From Candidatus Doudnabacteria bacterium (GTDB lineage Bacteria > Patescibacteriota > Doudnabacteria > UBA920): 64,000 bases of DNA. A program made the translations under genes and the position numbers. The stretch is taken from NCBI GenBank assembly GCA_016788665.1, contig JAEUSF010000003.1, positions 35,021 through 99,020 of the forward strand, given 5' to 3'. A model generated the notes under the pieces. It saw nothing but the letters and a program-made list of their open reading frames with translations. It searched no databases and was not told the origin of the DNA. Below are positions 5,809 through 60,545 of this stretch, piece after piece. How positions within the stretch are numbered: position 1 is the stretch's first letter; the number at the start of each line of letters is the position of its first letter.

Positions 5809-5837
5809 GTTGGTAACATATCTGAAGTTTTGAATCT

Positions 5838-10434: not shown

Positions 10435-11904
10435 ATGAAACCGAAATTAAAGCATCTTGTTACATTCTTTGGTATTTTGCTGCTCACCTTGGCTGCGGTC
10501 TGGGTTGTACACCCTAAAGGTGCAAAAATAAATTTAAACAAACTAAAAATTCCATATAGCCAAGATTTTCGTCTTAGGCTTGGTTTAGATTTGCAGGGCG
10601 GTTCGCACTTGGTTTATAAAGCAGATTTTAAAGATGTTATAAGGGAAAACCAGGCAGATGCGCTTTCTGCTATTCGAGATATTATAGAAAGGCGTGTTAA
10701 TGGCTTCGGAGTAGCAGAACCAATTGTTCAGGTTTCTGGTAGTGACAGACTTATAGTAGAACTTCCGGGCGTTAAAGACGTAAACGAAGCAATTAGGCAA
10801 ATTGGCCAGACTCCCTATTTGGAATTTAGAGCACAAGACGAAAACACACCCACCGAAGTTCCAGAAAACGGGGTTATAACTGTTGACCCGCTGGACGGAT
10901 GGAAGGTTACAGGGTTGTCAGGTAAGCAGTTAAAGAAAGCCTCTGTTGATTTTCAGGGTTCGACTGGTTTAACAAACCAAGCGGTAGTCAGGCTTGAGTT
11001 TAACGATGAGGGCAGACAACTCTTTAACGATATTACAACTGCAAATTTGGGTAAGCCAGTAGCTATAGTTTTAGACGGTCAAATAATTAGCGCACCAACT
11101 GTGCAAACGGCAATAACTGACGGAGTGGCTATAATTTCCGGGAATTTTGGTGTAGCCGAAGCCAGAGAATTGGCAAGTCGTCTAAACAGCGGAGCTTTGC
11201 CTGTTCCTATTGAGCTAGTCTCACAGCAAAATATCGGAGCTACTTTGGGTAAAGAATCTATTCAAAAGTCAGTTATGGCAGGGTTTATTGGGTTGGTTTT
11301 GATAGCGTTGTTTATGTTGGTTTTCTATAGATTTCCAGGTTTGTTGGCGGTTATAGCTTTGCTTATTTATACCCTGCTTTCTTTGGCGGTGTTTAAGGTA
11401 GGTATATCTTTTACCGCAGTACTGCTTGTTGGGCTTTTCTTCTTCTTAGGGCTGTCTGTTAACTGGAGGTTTGGGATATTGGCTTTGGTCTCTTACATTC
11501 TTTTAATGTTCTTAAAAGCGCTTTCGCCAGTTACGTTGACTTTGGGCGGTATAGCCGGGTTTATTTTGTCGGTTGGTATGGCTGTGGATGCAAACATTTT
11601 AATTTTTGAAAGGCTGAAAGAAGAAATTCGTTCGGGGAAAGACATAGTAAGGGCTATTGACGACGGTTTTGACAGAGCGTGGTTATCTATTCGCGACTCT
11701 AATGTATCTAGCCTTATTACGACTTGTATTTTATACATGTTTGGCACGCCTTCAATAAAAGGCTTCGCCGTGACCCTTTCTATTGGTATTTTACTTTCTA
11801 TGTTTACAGCTATTTCTGTAACCAGGACCTTTTTAAAGCTTTTTGTTGGAGAAAATATTTTAAAGCATCCTTGGTTATTTGGGGTTAGTAGAAATAACCG
11901 TTAA
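10435..11904 (+). CDS. secD: Protein translocase subunit SecD
   Basis: N-terminal TM, large periplasmic domain, C-terminal 6-TM SecD/SecF fold. Followed by secF. Confidence 0.9.
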   Translation: MKPKLKHLVTFFGILLLTLAAVWVVHPKGAKINLNKLKIPYSQDFRLRLGLDLQGGSHLVYKADFKDVIRENQADALSAIRDIIERRVNGFGVAEPIVQVSGSDRLIVELPGVKDVNEAIRQIGQTPYLEFRAQDENTPTEVPENGVITVDPLDGWKVTGLSGKQLKKASVDFQGSTGLTNQAVVRLEFNDEGRQLFNDITTANLGKPVAIVLDGQIISAPTVQTAITDGVAIISGNFGVAEARELASRLNSGALPVPIELVSQQNIGATLGKESIQKSVMAGFIGLVLIALFMLVFYRFPGLLAVIALLIYTLLSLAVFKVGISFTAVLLVGLFFFLGLSVNWRFGILALVSYILLMFLKALSPVTLTLGGIAGFILSVGMAVDANILIFERLKEEIRSGKDIVRAIDDGFDRAWLSIRDSNVSSLITTCILYMFGTPSIKGFAVTLSIGILLSMFTAISVTRTFLKLFVGENILKHPWLFGVSRNNR

Positions 11905-11966
11905 GTCATTAATCCTTTGTCGGAATTTACCACCTAAACAGGCGGCGGAAACCGAGTCTAATCTAT

Positions 11967-12848
11967 ATGTTAAATATCTTAAAGTATTATAAATTGTGGT
12001 TTGTTGTCTCAGGGTTAATTTTGTTGTTTGGTATAGGCTCGCTTTCTATTTATGGTTTGAATTTGGGGATAGACTTCAAAGGCGGTACATTGACGGAAAT
12101 AAAGTTTGAACGACCTTATGACCTAAAGGCTGCAGAGAGTGCCGTAAAGTCTGCGGAACTCGGTAATTTTCAGTTACAGCCCGCCGATAATAACACTTTG
12201 CTTATAAAGACTGTTTCTGCAGAAAAAGAGAAGCATGACTTAATGCTTACTAAAATAAGAGAAATGGCTGGTGATTTTACTGAGCAACAATTCCAGTCCA
12301 TTGGGCCTTTGGTGGGAAAGGAGTTGGCGAAAAATGCATTTTATCAATTATTGCTTGTTTCTTTGGGTATAGTATTCTATATAGCCTATGCTTTCAGAAA
12401 AGTACCAAAACCATTTACCTCTTGGAAATTTGGCTTGGCTGCAATAATTGCACTTTTACACGACTTGGTTTTTGTTTTGGGTGTATTTTCCTTACTTGGT
12501 CATTTTAAAGGCGTGGAAGTGGATAGTATGTTTGTGACAGCACTGCTCACTGTTTTGGGTTTTTCGGTTCACGACACCATAGTCGTATTTGATCGTATTC
12601 GTGAAAATTTAAAGTTTTATGCCAGCCAAAGCATAGAATTTGTGGTTAATCACAGTATTGCGCAAACTATAGTTCGTTCTCTAAATACTTCCTTAACCGT
12701 TTTGTTTGTACTATTGGCCCTGCTCTTGTTCGGTGGGGAAACTATTCGTTACTTTGTGTTAGCCCTATTTGTCGGTATAATTGTGGGTACATATTCTTCT
12801 ATATTTATTGCTAGTCCGGCTTTGATGATTATGCAGAAGAAGAAGTAG
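11967..12848 (+). CDS. secF: Protein translocase subunit SecF
   Basis: DFKGGT motif, 6 TM, paired with secD. Confidence 0.9.
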   Translation: MLNILKYYKLWFVVSGLILLFGIGSLSIYGLNLGIDFKGGTLTEIKFERPYDLKAAESAVKSAELGNFQLQPADNNTLLIKTVSAEKEKHDLMLTKIREMAGDFTEQQFQSIGPLVGKELAKNAFYQLLLVSLGIVFYIAYAFRKVPKPFTSWKFGLAAIIALLHDLVFVLGVFSLLGHFKGVEVDSMFVTALLTVLGFSVHDTIVVFDRIRENLKFYASQSIEFVVNHSIAQTIVRSLNTSLTVLFVLLALLLFGGETIRYFVLALFVGIIVGTYSSIFIASPALMIMQKKK

Positions 12849-12917
12849 GACGTACTACGGATTTACCCTTTATCCTACAAAAGGTCTGGGAGGGGATGTT
12901 GCCAAAATAAATTTTCT

Positions 12918-12957
12918 AAAAATATCTTTGCAAATATGCAAAGATATTTTTTTATTG
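12918..12957. terminator. Rho-independent terminator after secF: perfect 15-bp stem (AAAAATATCTTTGCA / TGCAAAGATATTTTT), 4-nt loop, A-run before and T-run after (bidirectional-capable)
   Basis: The arms are exact reverse complements. Confidence 0.65.
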
Positions 12958-13059
12958 AATTATTAGGGAATTTACGACTTAATACGCATAAAAACAAAAG
13001 AAATTCAATATTTCCTTATAAATATGCGAGATTTTAGAAATTTAGGTAATAATTAACAT

Positions 13060-13088
13060 TTGACATAAAAAATAGTTTGTGCTATAGT
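13060..13088 (+). promoter_or_regulatory. Near-consensus sigma-70 promoter TTGACA-17-TATAGT, about 100 nt upstream of the 13186 gene
   Basis: TTGACA at 13060-13065, 17-nt spacer, TATAGT at 13083-13088, inside a 335-bp AT-rich intergenic region. Confidence 0.55.
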
Positions 13089-13185
13089 GTTGATATAAAT
13101 TTTTACACTATTATAAGCTAATTTTCTCTACGCGAATCTGCTTAGGCAGGATCTGCTGGGGAATGAATTACTTTTTCTGAATTTC

Positions 13186-14271
13186 ATGGGAATTTTAGAT
13201 ACAATTATAACTACTAGACATAACGTTAACTTTCAGGAGTTTAAACCCGAAGAAACCTTGCGGGAAATTTTGTCTTTGGTCGAAAAAGAGCGTGATAAAA
13301 AAATTCTGCGTCATCGTTATGGACTCCAAGATAGCGAAGAAAAAACTTTGGCTGCTATAGGCGAGGAGCATAATTTAACTCGTGAAAGAGTTAGGCAGAT
13401 AGAAAAAGATATAATCAAGCATTTAAAAAAGAACTCTGGACGGAGCGATGCCTTTTTAAAGGCCAAAGATTTTCTTTTAAACATAGTTGCAGAACATGGC
13501 AGGGTAATTGCAGAAGAAAATTTGCTTTTAAGGCTTAATCTGCAAAATAGTTCTGAACGAAACGCAGTTATATTCCTGCTTCACTTAATTGAAGAATTGG
13601 ACCATTTTATACACGACAACTATAAAAAAGCCTGGGTTTATGTGCTTTTTAACAATGATTTGTTGCATAAGAGCATGGAAGTCAGTAAGAATATTTTAGA
13701 CCAAAAAGGTAAACCGCTTGCTTCTGAAGAATTTTTACAGCATTTTAAGGAAACTGAGTTTTATAAGGAAAATCAAGCCGAGCTTACGGACAAAGTAATT
13801 TTGAACTTTTTAAGCTTGGCTATTGAAATTGAAAAAAATGTGTTTGAAGAATGGGGACTTTTGAATTGGAAAGAGATTAAGCCCCGTGACGTGGGTGACA
13901 AGGCTTACTTGGTTATGAAAAATGGTAAAAAGCCTTTGCACTATGCAGAAATTACTGAACTTATAAACAAGGCCGGTTTTGACAATAGAAAAGCTTATAA
14001 GGAAACAGTACATAACGAGCTTATAAAAGACGCACGCTTTGTTTTGGTTGGACGAGGAATTTATGCTTTGTCTGAATGGGGGTACAAACCCGGTGTAGTG
14101 GCCGATGTTATAAAAGAAGTTTTACTGGATTTTAAGGAGCCTATTAGTCGTGAAAAAATTATTGAAGAAGTTTTAAAACGCAGGATGGTAAAAAAGAATA
14201 CTATTTTGGTCGGTCTTTCAAACCGCAAGTTTTTTACAAAAGTCGGAAAAAACCTGTATTCTTTAGCATAG
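13186..14271 (+). CDS. Putative transcription-associated protein: N-terminal sigma-70 region-4-like HTH plus C-terminal HARE-HTH winged helix
   Basis: AAIGEEHNLTRERVRQIEKDIIKHLKK resembles sigma-70 region 4.2. The C-terminal ...HNELIKDARFVLVGRGIYALSEWGY matches the HARE-HTH ending of RNAP delta subunit N-domains (RF..l..g.WgL..W). Confidence 0.5.
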   Translation: MGILDTIITTRHNVNFQEFKPEETLREILSLVEKERDKKILRHRYGLQDSEEKTLAAIGEEHNLTRERVRQIEKDIIKHLKKNSGRSDAFLKAKDFLLNIVAEHGRVIAEENLLLRLNLQNSSERNAVIFLLHLIEELDHFIHDNYKKAWVYVLFNNDLLHKSMEVSKNILDQKGKPLASEEFLQHFKETEFYKENQAELTDKVILNFLSLAIEIEKNVFEEWGLLNWKEIKPRDVGDKAYLVMKNGKKPLHYAEITELINKAGFDNRKAYKETVHNELIKDARFVLVGRGIYALSEWGYKPGVVADVIKEVLLDFKEPISREKIIEEVLKRRMVKKNTILVGLSNRKFFTKVGKNLYSLA

Positions 14272-14314
14272 GTTACTGAGGCACAAAAGTTGGCCAAAAT
14301 ACGAAATTCAACCT

Positions 14315-15730
14315 TTGAGTATTTTGGTATCCGTCGATAGGCGGGTTAAGTACCTCAGTTGCCTTACAGAAACAAAAATGGACATATTAAAGGAGACTTT
14401 GCCAAATTTTGTTGAAATTTTTAAGATTGCCGGGCTAATAATTTTTAAATATTATGGCTGGGTGCTTTTTGTTTGGGTAATTATTTATATAATGTGGAAA
14501 AAGTATTTCGGCGAAATTCAGCACCAGTTTATACATAATCAAGAATGGGAATTTTTACAGCTTAGGGTTCCTAAGGAAAACAAAGCCAGCACTTTGGCGG
14601 TGGAGTCTATTTTTGCTCAAATGCATTCGCTTCACACCGGTCCGACTTTTGCCCAAAAATATATAGAAGGCAAGGGACAGCTTTGGTATAGCTTAGAGCT
14701 CGTGTCGCTGGGCGGCAAAATTGCATACATTATTCGCATACCAAAAAAAATGAGGCAGGTTGTAGAGGCATCTTTTTATGCACAGTATCCAGAAATTGAA
14801 ATTTTGGAAGTTAATGACTACATGGAAAATTTTAATTATGACCCGGAAAAAGATGAACATTTGGAAATTTGGGGAACAGAAGTATTAATGTCCGACGACT
14901 GGGCATTGCCAATTAGAACTTATCGCGATTTTGAACATCCTACTGCGGAGGATAAGATAATAGACCCGCTCTCTCCAACTTTTGAGGTTTTGTCTCTCAT
15001 TAAGCCCCATGAATTTTTGGGTATTCAGATTATAATTTCTCCAATAGGGGATTCTGACTGGATGCCTCATTCTGAGAGTAAGGTTAAGGAATTAATTGGC
15101 GAAGAGGCAGCGCATGAGCCAACTTTTACAGGTACTTTACTTAAGCCCGTGGAAGCTTTTTCTAGCATGAGCTACAGGTCTTTGGTTTTGGGTGGTGGGC
15201 ATGGGCGCGGTGGGCATGGAGAAGAAGAAGGTGCTCAGAAAAATAATTGGATGCAAATGACGGAAACTCAAAAAGAAAGGGTGACTTTAATTGAAAAGAA
15301 AGCAAGTAAGCCGGCTTATAAAACCAAGATTCGCTGGCTCTATATCTCGCCAAAGGAAAGTTTTGACAAGTCTAAACAGTCACTCTTGCCCGGGGCTTAT
15401 AGGCATTTTAGCAATATGCAGTCGAACAAGTTAAAACCAGATACCAAAAAAACCTGGACTAGCGCTGAATACATGTTTTCTGAAACTTTAGAAAAGCCTT
15501 ATTTGCAGAAAGTTGTTAACACCAAAAAGCGAAATATTTTTAAAGGTTATAAAAACCGCGATATTCATATAGGTAGACCTATGTTTGTAATGAACATAGA
15601 AGAAATTGCTACTTTATACCACTTTCCTATAACCACAGAAACTTCTCCAATACCGGCGGCTATAGACCGAGTTGAAAGCAAAAAGTCCCAAGCCCCTTCC
15701 AATTTACCCATAGCAGACATAGAAGAGTAG
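14315..15730 (+). CDS. Hypothetical single-pass membrane protein with a Gly/His-rich segment (GGGHGRGGHGEEEG); alternative start at ATG 14378
   Basis: One N-terminal TM helix (IAGLIIFKYYGWVLFVWVIIYIMW) and a large soluble domain. Tightly followed by the VirD4-like ATPase gene. Confidence 0.5.
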   Translation: MSILVSVDRRVKYLSCLTETKMDILKETLPNFVEIFKIAGLIIFKYYGWVLFVWVIIYIMWKKYFGEIQHQFIHNQEWEFLQLRVPKENKASTLAVESIFAQMHSLHTGPTFAQKYIEGKGQLWYSLELVSLGGKIAYIIRIPKKMRQVVEASFYAQYPEIEILEVNDYMENFNYDPEKDEHLEIWGTEVLMSDDWALPIRTYRDFEHPTAEDKIIDPLSPTFEVLSLIKPHEFLGIQIIISPIGDSDWMPHSESKVKELIGEEAAHEPTFTGTLLKPVEAFSSMSYRSLVLGGGHGRGGHGEEEGAQKNNWMQMTETQKERVTLIEKKASKPAYKTKIRWLYISPKESFDKSKQSLLPGAYRHFSNMQSNKLKPDTKKTWTSAEYMFSETLEKPYLQKVVNTKKRNIFKGYKNRDIHIGRPMFVMNIEEIATLYHFPITTETSPIPAAIDRVESKKSQAPSNLPIADIEE

Positions 15731-15751
15731 TTTATAAATAAAAAAATATAA

Positions 15752-17647
15752 ATGGATAATCAACCCAAAATTACCACATTTGCGAAAACAAACTTCCGGG
15801 GCAAGGAAGTGGCTTTTGGTATTAAGACCGACGACCGTAGACGGCATATGTACCTAATAGGTAAGACAGGTATGGGCAAAACCAGTTTAATGGAAAATAT
15901 GGTTATTCAGGATATTAGAAATGGCCACGGTGTTGCGTTTTTAGACCCACACGGCGACTCCGTTCAGCGCATACTAAACTGTATACCGCCCCACAGGGTT
16001 AACGATGTCGTGTATTTTAACCCAGCAGATTTGGAATTTCCTGTCGCATTCAATATTTTAGAAGCAGTAGATGCTAAGTATAAGCACTTGGTAGCCTCCG
16101 GACTTATGGGCGTGTTTACCAAAATTTGGGCAAATCTTTGGTCCGCCAGAATGGAATACATTTTAAACAACACCGTTTTAGCGTTGCTCGATAGCCCAGG
16201 TAATACATTGCTTGGTATAACCCGCATGTATGTAGACAAAAAATATCGAAAGAAAATAGTAGATAATATAAAAGACCCTGTTGTAAAAAGTTTTTGGGTC
16301 GATGAGTTTGCTAACTATAACGAAAAGTATAGAACCGAAGCCATTGCTCCTATTCAAAATAAGGTAGGGCAGTTTTTGTCGTCTGGGATTATACGCAACA
16401 TAGTTGGTCAGCCCAAAAGTACCATAGATTTGCGCGAGGTTATGGACAACCGGAAAATTTTAATTATGGACTTGTCTAAAGGCAAGGTGGGTGAGGATAA
16501 CTCGGCTTTGCTGGGGGCTATGATTGTTACCAAACTTCAGCTTGCTGCTATGTCCAGAACAGACATACCCGAGTCGGAACGTAAAGATTTTTATTTATAT
16601 GTAGACGAATTTCAAAATTTTGCAACAGACAGTTTTGCGACTATTCTTTCGGAAGCAAGAAAATATCGTTTAAACCTTATAGTCGGACACCAATATATTG
16701 CTCAATTGGAAAATGACAAAAATACTAAAGTTCGTGACGCAATATTTGGTAACGTGGGAACAATTGCAGTATTTAGAATTGGCGCAGCAGACGCCGAGTT
16801 TTTGGAAACTGAATTTGAGCCGATTTTTACACCAAACGATTTGGTGAATTTGCCAAAATACAATATTGTTTTAAAACTCATGATAAATGGCGTGGCCAGT
16901 GAGCCCTTCTCTGCAGTGACCCTTGCTCCCAACGACGCTTACCTAACCAATAATTCTGAGAAAGTTATACGAGTTTCCAGAGAAAGATATGCAAATCCGG
17001 TAGATGCGGTCGAGGAAAAAATAAGCCGCTGGATGGGAGCGGAATTTCATCAGGAATCTGCTGAAATGGTGGAGAGCGAGGAACAAGAAATAAAAGTTCC
17101 TACTCCTCAGGAAGAAATTGCTCCTTTGAATAATTCCGTTGTGCAAGTGACGCCTTTAACTATGTCTATGCCGGTAGAAGAGGAGCCGGCGCCTGCTGTG
17201 GTAGAAGAAAAGCAGGTTCTAAAGTTTGCCGAGCCGCCTCGAGAAGAACAAAGTTCAAAGTTTGTTAACTTTGAAGAACGAAAACCCAAAGAAGACAGAC
17301 CAAAGGGGTATAAACCTTCTTTAACTTTTAGACAGGATCCAGAATTTAAGCCTAAGCCTCAAAAATTTAACAGAGAAAAGATTTTTAAACATAGGGTAAA
17401 AGAGAAACCACAGAAAAAAGAAAATCCTATTTGGGATGCAGTTATTAAGGAGCAAAATCAAAAAAACCAAAATGCGCATAAGCGCTTGGAACAAAGTGTG
17501 AAAAGTTTGTTATCAGACGAAAAAGAGTTAGGACAACAATCTTCGCCTTCTTCCACGTCAACTCCTTCTGGTTTAGATGGTTCTGAAAAAAAACCTGACA
17601 CCTCGGTAAGGACCATTTTAAAGCCCAACAAGCCTGTTAGTTTTTAG
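15752..17647 (+). CDS. Type IV secretion coupling-protein-like ATPase (VirD4/TraD/TrwB family) with a roughly 200-aa disordered Glu/Lys/Pro-rich C-terminal tail
   Basis: Walker A IGKTGMGKTS and hydrophobic-D ILIMDLSKG. YLYVDEFQNF...ARKYRLNLIVGHQYIAQL resembles the TraD/TraG C-terminal (TraM-recognition) domain. Confidence 0.6.
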   Translation: MDNQPKITTFAKTNFRGKEVAFGIKTDDRRRHMYLIGKTGMGKTSLMENMVIQDIRNGHGVAFLDPHGDSVQRILNCIPPHRVNDVVYFNPADLEFPVAFNILEAVDAKYKHLVASGLMGVFTKIWANLWSARMEYILNNTVLALLDSPGNTLLGITRMYVDKKYRKKIVDNIKDPVVKSFWVDEFANYNEKYRTEAIAPIQNKVGQFLSSGIIRNIVGQPKSTIDLREVMDNRKILIMDLSKGKVGEDNSALLGAMIVTKLQLAAMSRTDIPESERKDFYLYVDEFQNFATDSFATILSEARKYRLNLIVGHQYIAQLENDKNTKVRDAIFGNVGTIAVFRIGAADAEFLETEFEPIFTPNDLVNLPKYNIVLKLMINGVASEPFSAVTLAPNDAYLTNNSEKVIRVSRERYANPVDAVEEKISRWMGAEFHQESAEMVESEEQEIKVPTPQEEIAPLNNSVVQVTPLTMSMPVEEEPAPAVVEEKQVLKFAEPPREEQSSKFVNFEERKPKEDRPKGYKPSLTFRQDPEFKPKPQKFNREKIFKHRVKEKPQKKENPIWDAVIKEQNQKNQNAHKRLEQSVKSLLSDEKELGQQSSPSSTSTPSGLDGSEKKPDTSVRTILKPNKPVSF

Positions 17648-17659
17648 TCCATAATTAAA

Positions 17660-17699
17660 CAGGGACACACTCTTATAAAAGAGCGTGTCCCTGTTTTTT
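17660..17699. terminator. Bidirectional rho-independent terminator between the convergent 15752 gene and trxA (CAGGGACACACTC / GAGCGTGTCCCTG, then TTTTTT)
   Basis: 13-bp stem with one mismatch, 8-nt loop, T-run after and A-rich before. Confidence 0.65.
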
Positions 17700-17711
17700 G
17701 TTATAAAAACT

Positions 17712-18032
17712 TTACAAGACAGTTTTTATAACTTCCACAATATTGCTTTTTGGCTGGGCTCCAACCATTTCGGCAACTACTTTACCATTCTTGAAAAACT
17801 TAAGGCTAGGTATACTCATTACTCCGTAACGCATTGCTAAGCTATTGTTTTCATCTACGTTTACGCTTGCAACTTTTAGTTTGCCTTGGTATTCGTTGGC
17901 TAGTTCTTCAACAATTGGAGAAAGTGCTTTGCAAGGACCGCACCATTCTGCCCAAAAATCTACTAACACCGGCATTTCTGCTTGTAATGCTTCTTTTTCA
18001 AAATTTTGTTCGTCTAATTTAACTCCGCTCAT
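17712..18032 (-). CDS. trxA: Thioredoxin
   Basis: WCGPC active site, 106 aa. Confidence 0.9.
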   Translation of the reverse strand: MSGVKLDEQNFEKEALQAEMPVLVDFWAEWCGPCKALSPIVEELANEYQGKLKVASVNVDENNSLAMRYGVMSIPSLKFFKNGKVVAEMVGAQPKSNIVEVIKTVL

Positions 18033-21988: not shown

Positions 21989-22018
21989 TTGTAAAAAGTT
22001 AGCAAATGTTGTATAATG
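21989..22018 (+). promoter_or_regulatory. Candidate promoter (TTGTAA-18-TATAAT) for the PEP-CTERM gene, followed by a 9-bp-stem 5' UTR hairpin (22027-22062) and GGAGGG RBS
   Basis: Hexamers and the AAATCCTTC/GAAGGATTT inverted repeat read directly. RBS at 22068-22073, ATG at 22077. Confidence 0.35.
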
Positions 22019-22076
22019 CCCTAAACAAATCCTTCAAACCTCGCTAGGTTAAGAAGGATTTTATGTTGGAGGGAAA

Positions 22077-22583
22077 ATGATTCTGTTTGTCATGCTCTTG
22101 GCAGGTAGTATGCTAGGGGCCACTCTCTCGCTCGGTACGGGGCCGACCATAGAGGTTTCGAACTTCTCGGCCGGGACGTCCGAGTTTAGTGTCCAGGTTT
22201 CGCAGCCTGGGTACAACTTTGCTGGAGTAAAAATCCAGCCGCTTGCACCGGGTCTTGACCTGGTACTGAACTCGGCTACAGTGAACGGCAATGTCGCCAC
22301 CGGCTTTTCGGTGGGTTCTTTGGACGGGGCGAAGTACATAGCCCCGGACTCGGCAACGCTGCTGTTGCCCAACTTCGCTGTTGGGACGGTGGTGTTTAAC
22401 CTCACCGCTACAGGTGCGGTCGAGGGACAGAGCCCAAGCCAGCTCTTTATGGTTTTCTTGCAAAACCAGAACAGCTACGGCTTTACGGCGTATAACACCG
22501 CCGATTCTCCGGAGCCTGCAACCTGGGCGCTCGCAGGAGCTGTGCTCCTGGTGCTTGTGGCACTGGGCAAAAAACCTAGTTAG
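22077..22583 (+). CDS. Secreted protein with signal peptide and C-terminal PEP-CTERM-type sorting signal (SPEPATWALAGAVLLVLVALGKKPS*); GC-rich gene, probably foreign
   Basis: N-terminal hydrophobic signal peptide. C-terminus is PEP + hydrophobic helix + KK, as in exosortase substrates. Gene GC is about 57% against about 39% in the flanks. Confidence 0.55.
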   Translation: MILFVMLLAGSMLGATLSLGTGPTIEVSNFSAGTSEFSVQVSQPGYNFAGVKIQPLAPGLDLVLNSATVNGNVATGFSVGSLDGAKYIAPDSATLLLPNFAVGTVVFNLTATGAVEGQSPSQLFMVFLQNQNSYGFTAYNTADSPEPATWALAGAVLLVLVALGKKPS

Positions 22584-22614
22584 CCTTCCAACTTTTGTTC
22601 GGAGGCTTTTTTAT
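22583..22614 (+). terminator. Rho-independent terminator for the PEP-CTERM gene (GCCTTCC...GGAGGC then TTTTTT)
   Basis: Hairpin followed by a T-run immediately after the stop codon. Confidence 0.5.
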
Positions 22615-22652
22615 TTGCAAAAAAATACGCTGGCAACGGTTGTCGCCAGCGT
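22615..22652 (-). terminator. Rho-independent terminator for the minus-strand gene 22680..23177 (ACGCTGGC / GCCAGCGT 8-bp stem, T-run on the minus strand)
   Basis: Perfect 8-bp stem. The A-run on the plus strand is a T-run on the minus strand. Confidence 0.5.
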
Positions 22653-22679
22653 ACAGAAGTTTCGCGAAGAGGGTCGGTA

Positions 22680-23177
22680 CTACTCTTTGAAGATCGTGGG
22701 ATAGGCCTTTTTGGCCTTTTCCCAAGCGTCGACCAGAACCTTGGGCTCCGGCGACTTGAGAGTGAGATCGGTTTCCCGAATTACGCTCTTGAACCGCTCG
22801 CAGTCTTCGGTCTCGAACGGGAAGGCAGCTCCTTCCTTGCATCCCGACGTGACTTCAATTTGGAGGCTCGTCCGGCTGTCTTCCAGCATCCTTCTTACGA
22901 CTTGGATCACGGTTCTTTGCGAACCGATCATACGGTTGATGCTCTGCAGAACTTCATGGTCTCCGAAGACAAGTCCTTTTTCCAGATCCTGGCCGCTGAC
23001 TTTTAGCTTACTCTGGAAGGTTTGGAGCTTTCCGCTCCATTCTTTGATAACCCGGACTTCGTTCCGGGCCGTCTCCAGCCTCATCTTGCCCATTTGGGCA
23101 AGAGGGTCTTCCTGCCCAAAGGCCGCGGAGGCGGCCAATACCAACACCAACCACAACACGATCATAACGCGTTTCAT
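22680..23177 (-). CDS. GC-rich secreted hypothetical protein (signal peptide MKRVMIVLWLVLVLAASAAFGQ, two Cys)
   Basis: Convergent with the PEP-CTERM gene and of similar elevated GC. Its upstream region carries CTCTTCG..CGAAGAG / TTCGCGAA palindromes. Confidence 0.5.
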   Translation of the reverse strand: MKRVMIVLWLVLVLAASAAFGQEDPLAQMGKMRLETARNEVRVIKEWSGKLQTFQSKLKVSGQDLEKGLVFGDHEVLQSINRMIGSQRTVIQVVRRMLEDSRTSLQIEVTSGCKEGAAFPFETEDCERFKSVIRETDLTLKSPEPKVLVDAWEKAKKAYPTIFKE

Positions 23178-23429
23178 TTGCTCTCTCTTCTGGTAGTAGT
23201 GTCTCTTCGTATTCGCGAAGAGCAGGCTGTGGGCCTTCTAAAAGACCCTAAAACTGCTCTTCGCGAAAAATATAGGCCTCCTTATACTTGAGTGTAATTA
23301 TAGCATATTTAGAATAAAAAGTCAATGTGCTCGTACGTACAAAAAAAACTTATAAACATTGGTGTATATGAACCAGCTTAATATTTTAGATTTGGCTAAA
23401 AATATGGTAAAATTAATAATATTTTTGGC

Positions 23430-35631: not shown

Positions 35632-37395
35632 ATGAACCAAGAACTATTGGCGTACGTAAAGTCTGCTAAGCAGCATAATATGTCCGATGGAGAAATTAGG
35701 CAGAATTTGCATAATGCCGGGTGGGAGGGTAAGGATATAGAAGAAGCTATACTAAATTATGCAGCAGCTTCGGGTTTGGCAGAACAGGTTTTAAGTCCTG
35801 TAATAAAGCCATCTGCTGGTGCAGAAGCGGCTCCTGCGGTTTTAGGTAATATTGCTAACACGCCAAAGAAAAATAATGTAAAAGTTATATTAAGTATTTT
35901 GGCTCTAGTTTTACTAGGCGGGGCCGGAGCTTTTGCTTACGTGTTTGGTTACCATACCCCAAACCAAGTTTGGAGCAAGTTTTTGACTGCAAAAAAGTCG
36001 GAAGTGTACGACAGTAAGTTTTCTTTGTCTTATAAAGATAATAACGCTAGTACGAGCAGCTCCGCGGAAGACTCAATTCTTGGTATTAAAAGTATTTTCT
36101 TAAAATTTGACGGCGATGTGTATTTGAACTCTGCTGACAAGAGTAATCCTGAGTCAACTGCGGACGTGCAGTATACTTTCGGTTCAGGTGATACAAATTT
36201 TAACACGGGTTTTAAATACAGGCTCAAGGGTAACGTAATTTATTTAAATATTGGTAGTAATCCTCTTTTGGACATGGCGACAGCCGGGTTAGTTCCTAGC
36301 GGCCAAGAAAAACCAGAGTGGCTTAAAATAGACACTAAGGCGTTAATGCAGGGTTCGGGTCAGGATTCTAGCTCTTTGGAAAGTTTGGGGAGTGTTTTTA
36401 CTCCGGAGCTCTCAAACCAAATTAGTGAAGTATGGAAAAATGCAAAGATTGTGAAGTTAAAAAAGTTTAAGGGCTTTGAAAAGGTTTCTGGAAGCATGAC
36501 TATGCATTTTGAAAATGAGCTCGACAAAGAAGCTTTTAAGTCTGTAATTATTGCATCGGTTCAGAAGTTAGCTGACGCCTCTAAAAATAGCGGCTCCACA
36601 AGCCCGGAAGAAATACAGAGTGGTATGGATTTAGCGACAAAAATAGTTGGAGCAATAGTTGAAAAAATTCAAGTAACAAACTTTGAAACATGGGTGGGGG
36701 TAAAAAACTTCAATTTATATAAAGTAAAGTTTTCCAGCAATGCGCCGTCCGTACTTGCTGCTTTGGGAAGTTTCCAGACTACAATGTCAGACGCAAGTTT
36801 TCAGGCAAGGGATACTAGGCGATACAGCGATATACAACAATTATCCTCCGCATTAGAGCTGTATTATAAGGACAACGGGGGTTATCCTGAAGCATTAAAT
36901 GGAAAACCTGTTGGCCTAGAGCCTGGTTATATATATAAAATTCCAGACGCTCCATTGCCACCAGATGGGAGCTGTAGTTCGTATTACAATACTTATTGGT
37001 ATACTCCAGTTGGACAAAAAAAGAACGTTAATGGTAAGAGTGTTCATTCCGATTACACGTATGATTTATGCTTTGGAGAACCTGTGGGTGGCTATCCGGC
37101 GGGACTGGCACGCTTAACACCCGAAGGTGTAACAGGAGGCTTGGTTTGTGACAGTCAAGACACTAATTGTAAGGCTAGTGAAAATGCGTCATCGGAAATT
37201 GTAGAATCTAAAGACGAAGTAGATGCAATTTTAGACAAGCTAAATTTTGCAGCAGAGTTCAATGTGGATGCTACATATGGAAACTATGGAAAGATTAGGG
37301 CTGTTGAGGAGCCAAAAGAGTTTTTTGACCTGACTGAAATGTTGTCCAGAGGGGGGAGTTATCCTTCTGACGAAGGTTTGAATATGAATCAATAA
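35632..37395 (+). CDS. Large membrane-anchored surface protein containing a type IV pilin/pseudopilin-like globular domain
   Basis: N-terminal soluble segment then a TM helix. RDTRRYSDIQQLSSALELYYKDNGGYPE resembles the pilin/GspG globular-domain start. Cys pairs in the C-terminal part. Confidence 0.5.
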   Translation: MNQELLAYVKSAKQHNMSDGEIRQNLHNAGWEGKDIEEAILNYAAASGLAEQVLSPVIKPSAGAEAAPAVLGNIANTPKKNNVKVILSILALVLLGGAGAFAYVFGYHTPNQVWSKFLTAKKSEVYDSKFSLSYKDNNASTSSSAEDSILGIKSIFLKFDGDVYLNSADKSNPESTADVQYTFGSGDTNFNTGFKYRLKGNVIYLNIGSNPLLDMATAGLVPSGQEKPEWLKIDTKALMQGSGQDSSSLESLGSVFTPELSNQISEVWKNAKIVKLKKFKGFEKVSGSMTMHFENELDKEAFKSVIIASVQKLADASKNSGSTSPEEIQSGMDLATKIVGAIVEKIQVTNFETWVGVKNFNLYKVKFSSNAPSVLAALGSFQTTMSDASFQARDTRRYSDIQQLSSALELYYKDNGGYPEALNGKPVGLEPGYIYKIPDAPLPPDGSCSSYYNTYWYTPVGQKKNVNGKSVHSDYTYDLCFGEPVGGYPAGLARLTPEGVTGGLVCDSQDTNCKASENASSEIVESKDEVDAILDKLNFAAEFNVDATYGNYGKIRAVEEPKEFFDLTEMLSRGGSYPSDEGLNMNQ

Positions 37396-59096: not shown

Positions 59097-60545
59097 ATGA
59101 CAGATTTACCCAAGGAAAACAAAACTGCCGCCCCACAGCAACCAGACAATCAGGAGAACCTGACATTTTTTAATGTAATGCCAAAAAATAAAAGTTCAAA
59201 CCTTATTAGGCCAGTTGTAAAAACAGTTTCAACACCTGCCGAAAAAGGCTTGTCATCCGATTTACCCAAAGAACCAGGTTTCTTTAAAAAAAACATTAAA
59301 TATTTTTTAATATTTATATTTTTATGCATACTCGGAACAGCGGGGTATTTTTATGCCCCCAGTTTTTTTGTTGACGACTATAAGTCCCAAAACTATCTCG
59401 CGACACAAACAGAACAGAATGACCAAACTTCTGAACAGAAAAATAAATGGCTTCTGGATTTTTTTGGAAAGACTGACTGCGAACAGGTTCTCTGCGGCGA
59501 CGAGGCAGATCCGGACCATGACGGTTTAAAGAACCTGGAAGAATTCGACCTGCAAACTGACCCCAACAATGCTGATTCCGACAAAGACGGAATAGCTGAC
59601 GGGGATGAGAAATATGTTTTTCTGACTAATCCTTCAAACGAGCACTCCGGTGTAAATAGTAATTACACGGATGCCGATTATGCAAAAAACGCATACGACC
59701 CAAAAACTGATGCTAAATATTTGGATAGCGAAATTGCAAATTTGCATGCAAAAATGAAGCAGTTTAGCTTGCATCAACCAACCATTACTACATTGGAAGA
59801 GCCTTTGTTAAATATTTACAAGTTTAACCAAGATTCACCTTTTGCCACAACAACGCCTTCAACAGTTTCACCAGCCCCTTCGTCTACCACAGACTCCGTG
59901 TTACCCAAAGAAACCGACCTGTCTCCTGCAGCAAAGCAAGACAGGGACACACAAAGGTCATTAACCATTAAAAACATTGGCGTCGCTCTAGTTAAGTATG
60001 GCGAAGGCAATTCTGGAAAATTTCCATCCTCAAACAGCTTTAGCCAAATGTATTCGACAGTTAAGGTGTACTTAAAAACAGCAACAAATCCAACAGACCC
60101 TTTGAATGTAAACAAATTTGTGTATACATACACAACAAATGAGGACAGAACTGACTTTACTTTAAGCTATTATAGCGAAACGTTAAATCAATTAATAAAA
60201 AAGGCCTTTAAAGACGCCAAAGAAGACAAGCAGAAAATGGAAAGTGCTGGCTTAGATGACCAACGGCGAAATGATTTAGAAATTATAAGGTCTACTCTAC
60301 TGGTCTACTCGGAAGATAATATAGCCGGGAACGAAATTTATGTTTTCCCGACAAAAGAAAAATACAAAACAGCTTTGGTTCCCAATTACATATCTAGTCT
60401 GCCCAAAGATCCTAAAAACCAGTTAGATTATGATTACCAGGTATCGGAAACTTTTGATACCTTTACGTTAAAAAGTATTTATGATGCTCCAGCAAATGGA
60501 AAGACAGGCTATATGTGTAATCAAGAAGAGTGCCGGGATTACTAA
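59097..60545 (+). CDS. Large anchored surface protein with thrombospondin-3/dockerin-like Ca-binding repeats (DPDHDGLKN, DSDKDGIADGDE) and a pilin-like domain
   Basis: N-terminal TM. DxDxDG-type acidic loops. RDTQRSLTIKNIGVALVKY resembles the pilin globular-domain start, as in the 35632 protein. Confidence 0.5.
   Translation: MTDLPKENKTAAPQQPDNQENLTFFNVMPKNKSSNLIRPVVKTVSTPAEKGLSSDLPKEPGFFKKNIKYFLIFIFLCILGTAGYFYAPSFFVDDYKSQNYLATQTEQNDQTSEQKNKWLLDFFGKTDCEQVLCGDEADPDHDGLKNLEEFDLQTDPNNADSDKDGIADGDEKYVFLTNPSNEHSGVNSNYTDADYAKNAYDPKTDAKYLDSEIANLHAKMKQFSLHQPTITTLEEPLLNIYKFNQDSPFATTTPSTVSPAPSSTTDSVLPKETDLSPAAKQDRDTQRSLTIKNIGVALVKYGEGNSGKFPSSNSFSQMYSTVKVYLKTATNPTDPLNVNKFVYTYTTNEDRTDFTLSYYSETLNQLIKKAFKDAKEDKQKMESAGLDDQRRNDLEIIRSTLLVYSEDNIAGNEIYVFPTKEKYKTALVPNYISSLPKDPKNQLDYDYQVSETFDTFTLKSIYDAPANGKTGYMCNQEECRDY

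Follow-up and report, generated by a model that had tools for sequence, protein, structure and literature searches.

How did an ATPase resembling conjugative coupling proteins come to reside in the core chromosome of a Patescibacterium, and what might it do there? The question is raised by a 64,000-nucleotide stretch of DNA (hereafter the window) that is Candidatus Doudnabacteria (Patescibacteria) core chromosome. An earlier note on this sequence had listed three open reading frames as a module; an ORF check of the window found all three where it had placed them, and we call them P1, P2 and P3. Upstream lie secD and secF (10435 to 12848, plus strand; named after Pfam annotation of their orthologues at locus L001), which form their own transcription unit in the Doudnabacteria genome. 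A thioredoxin gene (17712 to 18032, minus strand) is convergent to P3, and D-Ala-D-Ala carboxypeptidase and MraY genes are also neighbors. As the note had said, VirB/Tra, relaxase and pilus genes are missing: none turned up among the ORFs examined in the window. Channel genes of the VirB3/VirB6/VirB8 type were absent from the module's neighbors, and no paralogue of P1, P2 or P3 occurred within the window.

Are the three genes expressed together? The top promoter site of the region is a sigma-70-type TTGACA-17-TATAGT with a TG-extended -10 (13060 to 13088, plus strand), which scores 11/12. The promoter before P1 exceeds chance: within 250 nt 5' of the P1 orthologue, a site scoring at least 10/12 was found at 32 of 48 related loci versus 13.7% of 663 other ORF upstream regions, and one scoring at least 11/12 at 18 of the 48 versus 3.2%. 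The near-consensus promoter claimed in the earlier note is therefore confirmed by an equivalent site kept in relatives. The strong terminators that it placed on either side also hold up, even though a simple consensus scan overlooked both; the first was read in the sequence, and both were scored by RNA folding. The intrinsic terminator after secF (12918 to 12964, plus strand; hairpin 12918 to 12957) has an AT-rich 15-bp stem followed by T7, and its hairpin folds with a dG of -16.7 kcal/mol (z -5.07; 0 of 200 shuffles folded equally well). The second (17660 to 17705; hairpin 17660 to 17699) is common to P3 and the convergent thioredoxin gene. Its plus strand gives a dG of -27.8 (z -9.0) followed by T6, and its minus strand a dG of -30.9 (z -9.6) with a weaker T run after the stem; its position suggests bidirectional use. 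Given the conserved consensus promoter, the flanking terminators and a gap of only 21 bp between P2 and P3, we conclude that P1-P2-P3 is a true three-gene operon across Patescibacteria (CPR).

Synteny of the trio in relatives was a check set beforehand, its loss being the outcome that would have refuted the module; counted across 80 related species loci, synteny held and the module was not refuted. P2 and P3 were neighbors at 63 of 73 evaluable loci. P1 lay upstream at 49 of 63, its frame abutting or overlapping that of P2 in some lineages; the other 14 had a SecF-P2-P3 arrangement lacking P1, of the Uhrbacteria type. The order P1-(P2)-P3 was preserved from ABY1 and Paceibacteria to Saccharimonadia, in which SecDF is not adjacent. 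SecF was directly upstream of P1 or P2 at 33 of 56 evaluable loci, and SecA was close by in the window and at nine other loci. At every locus examined the module sat amid housekeeping genes, the other neighbors being an unspecific mix, and no relaxase or T4SS genes were found in the clustered flanks of the 80 loci. There were at least 598 species hits. ATPases of the P3 kind were reported earlier as widespread orphan T4CP homologues of Patescibacteria: these genomes are very small, yet 2,918 of 3,035 (~96%) carry such homologues, of which only 148 of 5,713 lie near virB4, and VirB4 itself is present in 2,417 of the 3,035 (PMC12102498).

Could the module serve anti-phage defense or belong to a mobile element? 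Profile matches to MADS mad8, DndH and HerA-type proteins might suggest so. However, these are single-domain matches that arise from shared ATPase and HTH folds, and the partner genes of MADS, Dnd/Dpt and MZA are absent nearby. The near-universal, syntenic core-genome position under strong purifying selection argues against this reading as well, as does the lack of any flanking integrase or transposase. Neither patchy strain-level presence and absence nor a defense-island location was seen here. We consider a defense or mobile-element role extremely unlikely. The earlier note had proposed a translocation, uptake or defense module rather than a conjugation system; its view that this is not a conjugation system stands here, while the defense option does not fare well.

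What kind of ATPase is P3 (15752 to 17647, plus strand, 631 aa)? Its motor domain (15752 to 17071) is a P-loop ATPase of coupling-protein type within the FtsK-HerA superfamily, and every catalytic motif is intact. In Pfam it matched TrwB_AAD_bind (E 5.9e-13; 48.9 bits versus a cut-off of 20.5), DUF87 (E 8.6e-9), TraG-D_C (E 1.1e-7; 32.3 bits versus 22) and T4SS-DNA_transf (E 1.2e-4; 21.6 bits versus 20.1), and partial matches to the NCBIfam TraD and CD1115 families were seen. The only PDB sequences matching at E<=1 were TrwB and DotL, besides a 12-bit unrelated nucleoprotein (E 0.6). The Walker A motif GKTGMGKT and the motifs DEFQNF, RKYRL and HQYIAQL were invariant or nearly so in 49 P3 homologues, and motor domain identity across classes was 61 to 86%. 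While P3 is closest to TrwB/DotL/TraD by sequence, its predicted fold is equally near VirB4-CTD, DndH-C and TrwB; because the model is only moderate (pLDDT 67), the fold singles out neither VirB4-CTD nor T4CP. A search of the model for the all-alpha domain that T4CPs insert between Walker A and Walker B showed a helical insertion at about residues 100 to 230, predicted with a pLDDT of 37 to 60. None of the VirB4 profiles AAA_10, CagE_TrbE_VirB, TraC_F_IV and P-loop_TraG matched P3 at E<=1; AAA_10/CagE_TrbE_VirB/TraC-type profiles do match the true VirB4-like genes of an Embleya plasmid and of phage G. Judged from these comparisons, P3 is T4CP-like in sequence and VirB4-CTD/T4CP-like in predicted fold. 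Pfam, NCBIfam, PDB sequence and fold comparison thus uphold its earlier assignment as an ATPase of TraD/TrwB/VirD4 type by sequence, rather than FtsK. As FtsK/SpoIIIE it was rejected when an FtsK_SpoIIIE motor profile with a gamma winged-helix domain was not found, and as HerA when a central domain with an N-terminal HAS barrel and a NurA-type partner was not found.

P3 nevertheless departs from known members of these families. VirD4, TrwB and TraD carry a transmembrane domain on the ATPase chain and occur in a relaxase/T4SS context, whereas P3 lacks both: its chain begins at once with the ATPase domain, P2 carries the membrane helix, and this partner has a VirB4-like fold. VirB4 (TrwK) and the TrsD + VirB4 pairs of monoderm and Patescibacteria T4SS have VirB3/VirB6 neighbors, unlike P3, which also lacks a VirB4 profile match. 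The C-terminal tail (17072 to 17647) is a low-complexity K/P/E-rich linker of about 190 residues, close to the roughly 200 claimed earlier; the equivalent tail has a median of 178 aa in 83 relatives. A short conserved peptide closes it (here ...RTILKPNKPVSF), and C-terminal motifs recur among relatives, with PG[QE]x[IV][KR]F in 22 of 81.

P2 (14378 to 15730, plus strand) is a DUF8128 (PF26449) protein. Its ORF is open upstream to a TTG at 14315, from which it would encode the 471 aa given in the earlier note. Since homologues have 439 to 454 aa and align from M22, the true start is probably the ATG at 14378, yielding 450 aa. The Gly/His segment and N-terminal hydrophobic helix described in that note are present: GGGHGRGGHG lies in a loop predicted to be disordered, with a nearly invariant His, and the predicted membrane helix is followed by a predicted cytoplasmic alpha/beta domain. 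However, P2 is not the independent membrane partner it had been taken for. Two independent fold searches matched it to a VirB4 chain, and it is fused to the ATPase elsewhere. Because no other P-loop ATPase was among the P2 fold matches, we infer that the modeled resemblance is to the N-terminal domain of VirB4 specifically. The DUF8128 protein would then be the missing half of the orphan "T4CP."

Where are P2 and P3 one protein? Fusions occur in Ca. Southlakia epibionticum (SEML1_0293, 921 aa, ATPase domain 402 to 719), in phage G gp156 and SPO1 gp27.4, and in plasmid proteins, including an 885-aa "DUF87" protein of the B. subtilis plasmid NZ_CP154917 and an 812-aa protein of an Embleya linear plasmid. 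P2 and P3 each match one and the same gene in the mobile relatives, and phrog_5156 spans both. The adjacency at 63 of 73 loci, these fusions and phrog_5156 together indicate that P2 and P3 belong together. Among the closest known proteins are the fused ATPases of Gram-positive conjugative plasmids and large Bacillus phages (including 0305phi8-36 orf201), in which a DUF8128-like N-terminal domain precedes a T4CP-like motor, the same order as P2-P3. They are single polypeptides on mobile elements, whereas the window version is split, membrane-anchored, chromosomal and vertically inherited; the phage proteins lack a membrane helix (Pathria 2012, PMC3357382). The mobile relatives lie in conjugation-type clusters. 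A Replic_Relax gene adjoins the fused gene on the Embleya plasmid, on the B. subtilis plasmid and in SPO1, where the window version has a sigma-4/HARE-HTH gene and no relaxase. VirB4-like genes are found on both plasmids and, in phage G, beside the fused gene; the Embleya plasmid also has PrgI and NlpC/P60, and the B. subtilis plasmid annotated conjugal-transfer genes. These Replic_Relax and/or VirB4-like neighbors point to a conjugative origin. The breadth of species and genomes matched, the rarity of nearby virB4, the housekeeping neighbors and the 61 to 86% identity argue for subsequent domestication.

We then considered P1 (13186 to 14271, plus strand, 361 aa), for which a sigma-70 region-4.2-like HTH and a C-terminal HARE-HTH had been proposed. 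Both were found above the curated Pfam cut-offs, Sigma70_r4 at residues 35 to 82 (E 4.6e-11) and HARE-HTH, a winged helix, at residues 239 to 298 (E 2.6e-10); a variable helical middle separates them and a C-terminal winged helix follows. In 53 sequences the middle was poorly conserved, and the only positions conserved at 95% or more were T65, R66, E67, R68, R70, Q71 and the HARE-HTH core; the TRERxRQ helix of the region 4 domain is invariant. Going by the residue roles in E. coli sigma-70, we take the region 4.2 helix TRERVRQIE to match the helix with which primary sigma factors read the -35 element. P1 shares this helix with sigma-70 but lacks regions 2 and 3, neither of which was detected by Pfam or NCBIfam. 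Its top NCBIfam match is the RpoD C-terminus; as a sigma factor it was rejected, the sigma-family NCBIfam matches covering only the C-terminal 60 to 70 profile positions and falling far below cut-offs. It shares a HARE-HTH with the delta subunit (RpoE), where that domain is N-terminal, but was rejected as a delta subunit (TIGR04567 score 30.8 versus a cut-off of 42) and lacks delta's acidic tail; the region after the HARE-HTH in the orthologue SEML1_0294 is a folded winged helix, and ECOD assigns this protein one tri-helical and three winged domains. No conserved enzyme site was found in P1, which was rejected as an enzyme. Nor is it a Replic_Relax (PF13814) relaxase, its positional counterpart in the mobile relatives: there was no Pfam match, and in BLASTP neither SPO1 gp27.3 nor the relaxase-family protein of the Bacillus plasmid was similar to it. 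The predicted ligand of P1 is nucleic acid, RNA polymerase or both.

P2-P3 might be thought to replace FtsK/SpoIIIE as the chromosome-segregation pump at division: its motor belongs to the FtsK-HerA superfamily, is anchored in the membrane and has a long linker, a winged-helix protein accompanies it, and the cell-wall and division genes mraY, murD and ftsW are near the module in the window. We regard this as very unlikely.

Do the two parts of the operon serve one function? SEML1_0294 and SEML1_0293 are an orthologous pair, a Sigma70_r4 + HARE-HTH protein followed by a DUF8128+T4CP ATPase, and differ from the window in the P2-P3 fusion and in their neighbors, a GNAT gene and Cas9 instead of SecDF. 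Both families, two of the module's three, are on the "Patescibacteria-enriched core" list of largely uncharacterized families; neither gene is discussed in the main text, and in Tn-seq the P1 orthologue SEML1_0294 was essential and SEML1_0293 was scored nonessential (Wang et al. 2023, Cell, Tables S1-S2). Hence P1 has a function independent of the motor and is probably not merely an accessory of the ATPase; its adjacency to P2-P3 may reflect co-expression only.

Our preferred reading, to which we give about an even chance, is that this is a vertically inherited operon, with a strong promoter of its own, in which P2 and P3 are the halves of one membrane-anchored, coupling-lineage translocation ATPase and P1 has its own essential role. 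As to origin, Gram-positive plasmids and large Bacillus phages have the protein unsplit, and in Patescibacteria it would have lost its relaxase/VirB4 company and become domesticated. P2 would give the membrane helix and the VirB4-like-fold domain, probably resembling the N-terminal domain; P3 would give a motor of hexameric type and, behind it, a long flexible tail with a docking peptide at its end. The P2-P3 ring, driven by ATP, would pass its substrate on to a conduit in the membrane whose genes lie elsewhere; the Patescibacteria T4SS/pilus apparatus is a candidate, as is some other channel. The substrate would most likely be DNA or nucleoprotein, possibly presented by the co-transcribed P1, whose sigma-region-4 HTH with -35-reading residues and delta-like HARE-HTH would bind nucleic acid and/or RNA polymerase. 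The role would lie in exchanging DNA or interacting with the host, not in basic growth; ordinary conjugation is unlikely.

Perhaps P2-P3 is instead the coupling protein of the Patescibacteria T4SS, encoded apart from virB4 and recruiting protein or DNA substrates. The T4CP-type signatures of P3, the frequent separation of T4CP genes from virB4, the many genomes with VirB4 and the missing recognizable coupling protein of the Ca. S. epibionticum T4SS locus are all consistent with this. However, the T4SS genes of that species are essential and the fused P2-P3 orthologue is not, T4CP homologues occur in more genomes than VirB4 does, and the P3 motor is far more conserved than usual T4SS parts. We therefore think this reading rather unlikely. 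We have similar doubts that the operon joins unrelated functions, with P1 a general essential transcription factor associated with RNA polymerase (a delta-like or sigma-4-like accessory) that is mechanistically unconnected to the ATPase, and the ATPase working alongside Sec on protein substrates or in membrane biogenesis. The differing essentiality fits, as do the two P1 modules, which are known otherwise from subunits of RNA polymerase, the frequent SecDF and occasional SecA neighbors, and T4CPs such as DotL that handle proteins. Against it, the gene order persists in Saccharimonadia without adjacent SecDF, a terminator and promoter separate secF from P1 in the Doudnabacteria genome, and the remaining neighbors are an unspecific housekeeping mix.

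A bolder version of the preferred translocation ATPase, which we judge quite improbable, is that a conjugative ATPase became a phylum-wide housekeeping nucleic-acid translocator whose relaxase was replaced by P1, tethering promoter DNA or RNA polymerase to the membrane motor. If true, this could mean that DNA is exported to or imported from the host cell, or that transcription is coupled to the membrane beside the Sec machinery, by a mechanism without a described counterpart in other bacteria. More broadly, the pairing of a T4CP-like motor and a VirB4-like N-terminal domain bears on the T4CP-VirB4 relationship, and the module on the DNA- and protein-trafficking steps behind the epibiotic lifestyle. 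Saccharibacteria are now genetically tractable for testing it, and the P1 orthologue is essential in the sole species tested so far. In that species, normalized Tn-seq reads in SEML1_0293 stood at 5817 and dropped to 2940 and then 1372 in the course of two passages, with neighboring genes flat. That the motor is so highly conserved is difficult to reconcile with a function dispensable in culture.

The genes examined here sit in ordinary core chromosome. SecA, aminopeptidase N, SecD and SecF precede the trio; thioredoxin, D-Ala-D-Ala carboxypeptidase, MraY, an amidohydrolase, MurD, FtsW and a DUF4012 protein follow it, with MurJ, LepA, ATP synthase, an AddA-like helicase-nuclease and PheS further on. 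Nearly all genes of the 64-kb window are on one strand, and GC skew is positive throughout. The earlier note had remarked on the absence of VirB/Tra, relaxase and pilus genes nearby, and among the window ORFs examined we indeed found no integrase, relaxase, VirB or pilus gene. No tRNAs were found near the operon, and no paralogue of any of the three proteins was found elsewhere in the window.

Three ORFs read in the sequence, all on the plus strand, agree with those described before: P1, a sigma-70 region-4 and HARE-HTH protein (13186-14271); P2, a DUF8128 membrane protein (14315-15730 from a TTG start); and P3, a coupling-protein-type ATPase (15752-17647). For P2 the ORF stood, but because homologues are 439-454 aa long and their alignment begins at Met22, translation probably starts at ATG 14378 and not at TTG 14315. 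Site scoring and RNA folding also upheld the near-consensus promoter and flanking terminators that had been proposed. The gap between secF and P1 contains both an AT-rich hairpin followed by a T7 run (12918-12957; dG -16.7, z -5.1) and the top-scoring promoter of the region, TTGACA-17-TATAGT with a TG extended -10 (13060-13088). The unit is closed by a hairpin (17660-17699; dG -27.8, z -9.0) that is followed by T6 and is common to the operon and the convergent thioredoxin gene. An Rfam search of the leader, intergenic gaps and terminators gave nothing above noise.

Is this arrangement kept in relatives? The earlier note treated the three genes as a module, and a phmmer search of the six-frame ORFs from 80 species loci confirmed that their neighborhood is conserved. 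P2 lies directly upstream of the best P3 match in 63 of 73 evaluable loci, and P1 is upstream of P2 in 49 of those 63. Uhrbacteria-type loci lack P1 and read SecD-SecF-P2-P3. The best P3 match is an orphan in ten Paceibacteria-like loci; six of the ten have a second, more diverged P3 paralogue nearby, as in locus L075 (order SecF-P1-P2-P3'). In 32/48 loci, the 250 nt before P1 contain a promoter of score 10/12 or higher, usually one with a TG extended -10 and an exact TTGACA; among 663 other upstream regions, 13.7% do. With the threshold raised to 11/12, the proportions are 37.5% and 3.2%. We conclude that the trio is a conserved core-genome operon with its own promoter. An almost perfect TTGACA-17-TGnTATAAT was seen upstream of P1 across classes, even where SecF is directly upstream.

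Perhaps SecDF is a functional partner of the operon? SecF is directly upstream of P1 or P2 in 33/56 loci. However, this adjacency is absent in Saccharimonadia, and in the window a terminator and a promoter intervene; we therefore take it as conserved gene order and not as shared function. Clustering of flanking ORFs showed that the other recurrent neighbors are housekeeping genes (MnmA, AlaS, SecA, PGK, a RecJ-like DHH protein and D-Ala-D-Ala carboxypeptidase).

P3 had been assigned to the TraD/TrwB/VirD4 type. Against Pfam it matched TrwB_AAD_bind (E 5.9e-13, residues 26-343) as well as DUF87, TraG-D_C and T4SS-DNA_transf; its NCBIfam matches to TraD and VirD4-like families were partial. Significant matches among PDB sequences were TrwB (E 6.9e-6) and DotL (4e-5). 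Fold comparison scored the DndH C-domain and the VirB4 C-terminal domain highest (19.8 each), followed by TrwB (19.2), DotL (18.2), Cag-beta (18.1), HerA (17.7) and FtsK (13.4). The profiles favor the original assignment and, because of these fold scores, P3 is not placed in FtsK/HerA instead. By fold alone, a type IV coupling protein and a VirB4 C-terminal domain are inseparable for P3. Across 49 homologues the catalytic motifs vary little or not at all, and motor identity is 61-86% across Doudna-, Uhr-, Kerfeld-, Falkow-, Moran-, Buchanan-, Wolfe-, Colwell- and Nealsonbacteria and Paceibacteria. Relatives of P3 occur in at least 598 species genomes.

The P3 tail (17072-17647) forms a variable linker rich in K, P and E; its median length among relatives is 178 aa. 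At its C-terminal end, 22/81 tails have (I/L)xPG(Q/E)x(I/V)(K/R)F. Other tails terminate in LxE(L/V)RxxLxxxL, and those of diverged paralogues in ...EPLI; across the related loci (L001-L083), tail length and sequence differ while C-terminal peptides recur. To judge by sequence, these recurring peptides look like docking motifs.

Homologues of P2 bear Pfam PF26449 (DUF8128), a family on which our literature search found no papers. A family profile search returned 2,550 clusters at 50% identity; the best 150 are without exception stand-alone proteins, about 200-650 aa long, and the shorter members are probably fragments. The AlphaFold model of P2 was rated good (pLDDT 79.6, pTM 0.75) and has a long N-terminal hydrophobic helix, alpha/beta domains and a disordered loop holding a nearly invariant LGGGHGHG motif. 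Since P2 has no Walker motif and no other P-loop ATPases appeared among its fold hits, we infer that the part of VirB4 its fold matches is the N-terminal, non-ATPase domain. A profile search against PDB sequences gave noise and matched no solved structure; the putative link between P2 and VirB4 is one of modelled fold alone. The Gly/His segment (15170-15260; residues ~262-286 from Met22) is near-invariant family-wide, LGGGHGHG...NNW, despite its predicted disorder, and the loop could bind a metal or a partner. Near the P2 C terminus (15545-15700; residues 411-461, counted over the full 471-aa ORF), NCBIfam gave a weak match to PRK12543, a sigma-factor region 4 (E 4e-4, far under cut-off), which overlaps the invariant EEIATLYHFP motif and is probably due to chance.

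P2 and P3 occur elsewhere as one protein. PHROG family 5156 (824 profile positions) aligned with P2 at 49-288 and with P3 at 396-819. By tblastn, fused P2-P3 proteins were found in Bacillus phage G (gp156, 825 aa), in SPO1 (gp27.4, 906 aa), and in CP-51, JL, Shanette and others; the alignment of P2 to gp156 (E 2e-8) falls in the latter's N-terminal half. Bacillus plasmids have a single 885-aa "DUF87" gene matched by both proteins, and SEML1_0293 of Ca. Southlakia epibionticum ML1 is a 921-aa fusion with coupling-protein domains at 402-719. We conclude that P2 and P3 both belong to a single coupling-type ATPase whose N-terminal module is VirB4-like.

The nearest non-CPR relatives on mobile elements lie in conjugation-type clusters beside relaxase-family genes. 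On a B. subtilis plasmid, a Replic_Relax (PF13814) gene and annotated conjugal-transfer genes come after the fused gene, and a large "ATP-binding protein" would, from its size and position, be VirB4-like. An Embleya linear plasmid has the order PrgI, VirB4-like (AAA_10, P-loop_TraG), fused ATPase, Replic_Relax, NlpC/P60. In the phages, SPO1 gp27.3 is Replic_Relax and phage G gp155 is VirB4-like. From these gene contexts we therefore take the lineage to be a coupling-ATPase type that, in the elements examined, belongs to conjugation-type gene clusters. The phage version has been called a "DNA translocation operon," with a coupling ATPase lacking a transmembrane domain and having an unexplained N-terminal domain (Pathria et al. 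2012, PMC3357382). The N-terminal domain of these mobile-element ATPases matches P2.

P1 matched Sigma70_r4 and HARE-HTH significantly in Pfam. Its best NCBIfam matches, to the final ~65 positions of RpoD-type sigma factors, were all far under cut-off; its score against RNA polymerase delta was 30.8, under the cut-off of 42. Among 53 diverse orthologues, conservation is confined to two islands, the region 4.2 helix (T65 R66 E67 R68 R70 Q71) and the HARE-HTH core. We take the conserved 4.2 residues to correspond to the -35-reading residues of E. coli sigma-70. Because residues 81-220 are poorly conserved, we assign P1 no enzymatic site; judged by its sequence, it is a two-module HTH protein without an enzyme signature. 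Could P1 be a divergent relaxase? It has no Replic_Relax match, no similarity to gp27.3 or the relaxase-family protein of the plasmid and no conserved catalytic block, and we reject this reading. Nor does it appear to read a KOPS-like polarized motif that orients the motor: the counts of TTGACA, 13 on the plus strand and 11 on the minus strand, show no strand polarity. Autoregulation is conceivable, since P1 keeps the -35-reading sigma residues and its promoter is conserved.

The literature anticipates these findings, which we judge real, in part only. Quinonero-Coronel et al. (2025, PMC12102498) reported VirD4-type homologues from 2,918 of 3,035 Patescibacteria genomes, 5,713 in all, with only 148 near virB4, and proposed exaptation as possible; the DUF8128 partner, sigma-like gene and SecDF go unmentioned. 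Wang et al. (2023, Table S1) flagged SEML1_0293 and the P1 orthologue SEML1_0294 as core, Patescibacteria-enriched families, neither being discussed in the main text. SEML1_0294, with one tri-helical and three winged-helix ECOD domains, was essential at every time point; SEML1_0293 was called non-essential, and its normalized reads fell from 5817 to 2940 to 1372 while its neighbors stayed flat (Wang et al. 2023). Because P1 and P2-P3 differ in essentiality, P1 has at least one motor-independent role. The T4SS of Ca. S. epibionticum is essential and has no recognizable coupling protein.

We describe the trio as a split coupling ATPase that has been domesticated and has a VirB4-like N-terminal module, paired with a sigma-4/HARE-HTH protein. 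P2 would anchor a P3 hexamer at the membrane, and the P3 tail peptide would dock a partner. The substrate may be DNA or nucleoprotein, possibly presented by P1, and the machine would serve not growth but host interaction or the exchange of DNA. Roles in defense, ordinary conjugation and FtsK replacement are each disfavored; PADLOC matches to mad8, DndH and MzaA, which would suggest defense, are explained by shared folds.

Several observations concern the surroundings. In Saccharimonadia, as seen at SEML1_0293-0298 of ML1, the P1/P2-P3 pair has topA and dprA a few genes away and adjoins a type II CRISPR-Cas locus, not SecDF (Wang et al. 2023, Table S1). TPA MAG records L008, L009, L016, L023, L031, L033 and others, titled "uncultured Gammaproteobacteria," "Bdellovibrionales" or "Candidatus Saccharibacteria," all have a close P3 homologue and mostly a typical SecDF-(P1)-P2-P3 order; their taxonomic titles look unreliable. 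In Paceibacteria-like genomes, tandem arrays of Cys-rich proteins (~590 aa, zinc-ribbon-like CxxC repeats, no Pfam match) adjoin the orphan second ATPase paralogue: L043 10761-14186, L054 2-4569, L055 2-6726, L068 4987-8486, L075 7604-9364 (minus strand) and L020 8903-15263. These proteins may be partners or substrates of that paralogue. Within the window, coding-strand ORFs 35632-37395 (587 aa) and 59097-60545 (482 aa) lack Pfam matches. A GC-rich island at 22000-23200 (53%, versus ~38% elsewhere), without Pfam or Rfam hits or tandem repeats, has two small ORFs with signal peptides, 22077-22583 (plus strand), ending in a PEP-CTERM-like tail (SPEPATWALAGAVLLVLVALGKKPS), and 22680-23177 (minus strand); it may have been horizontally acquired.
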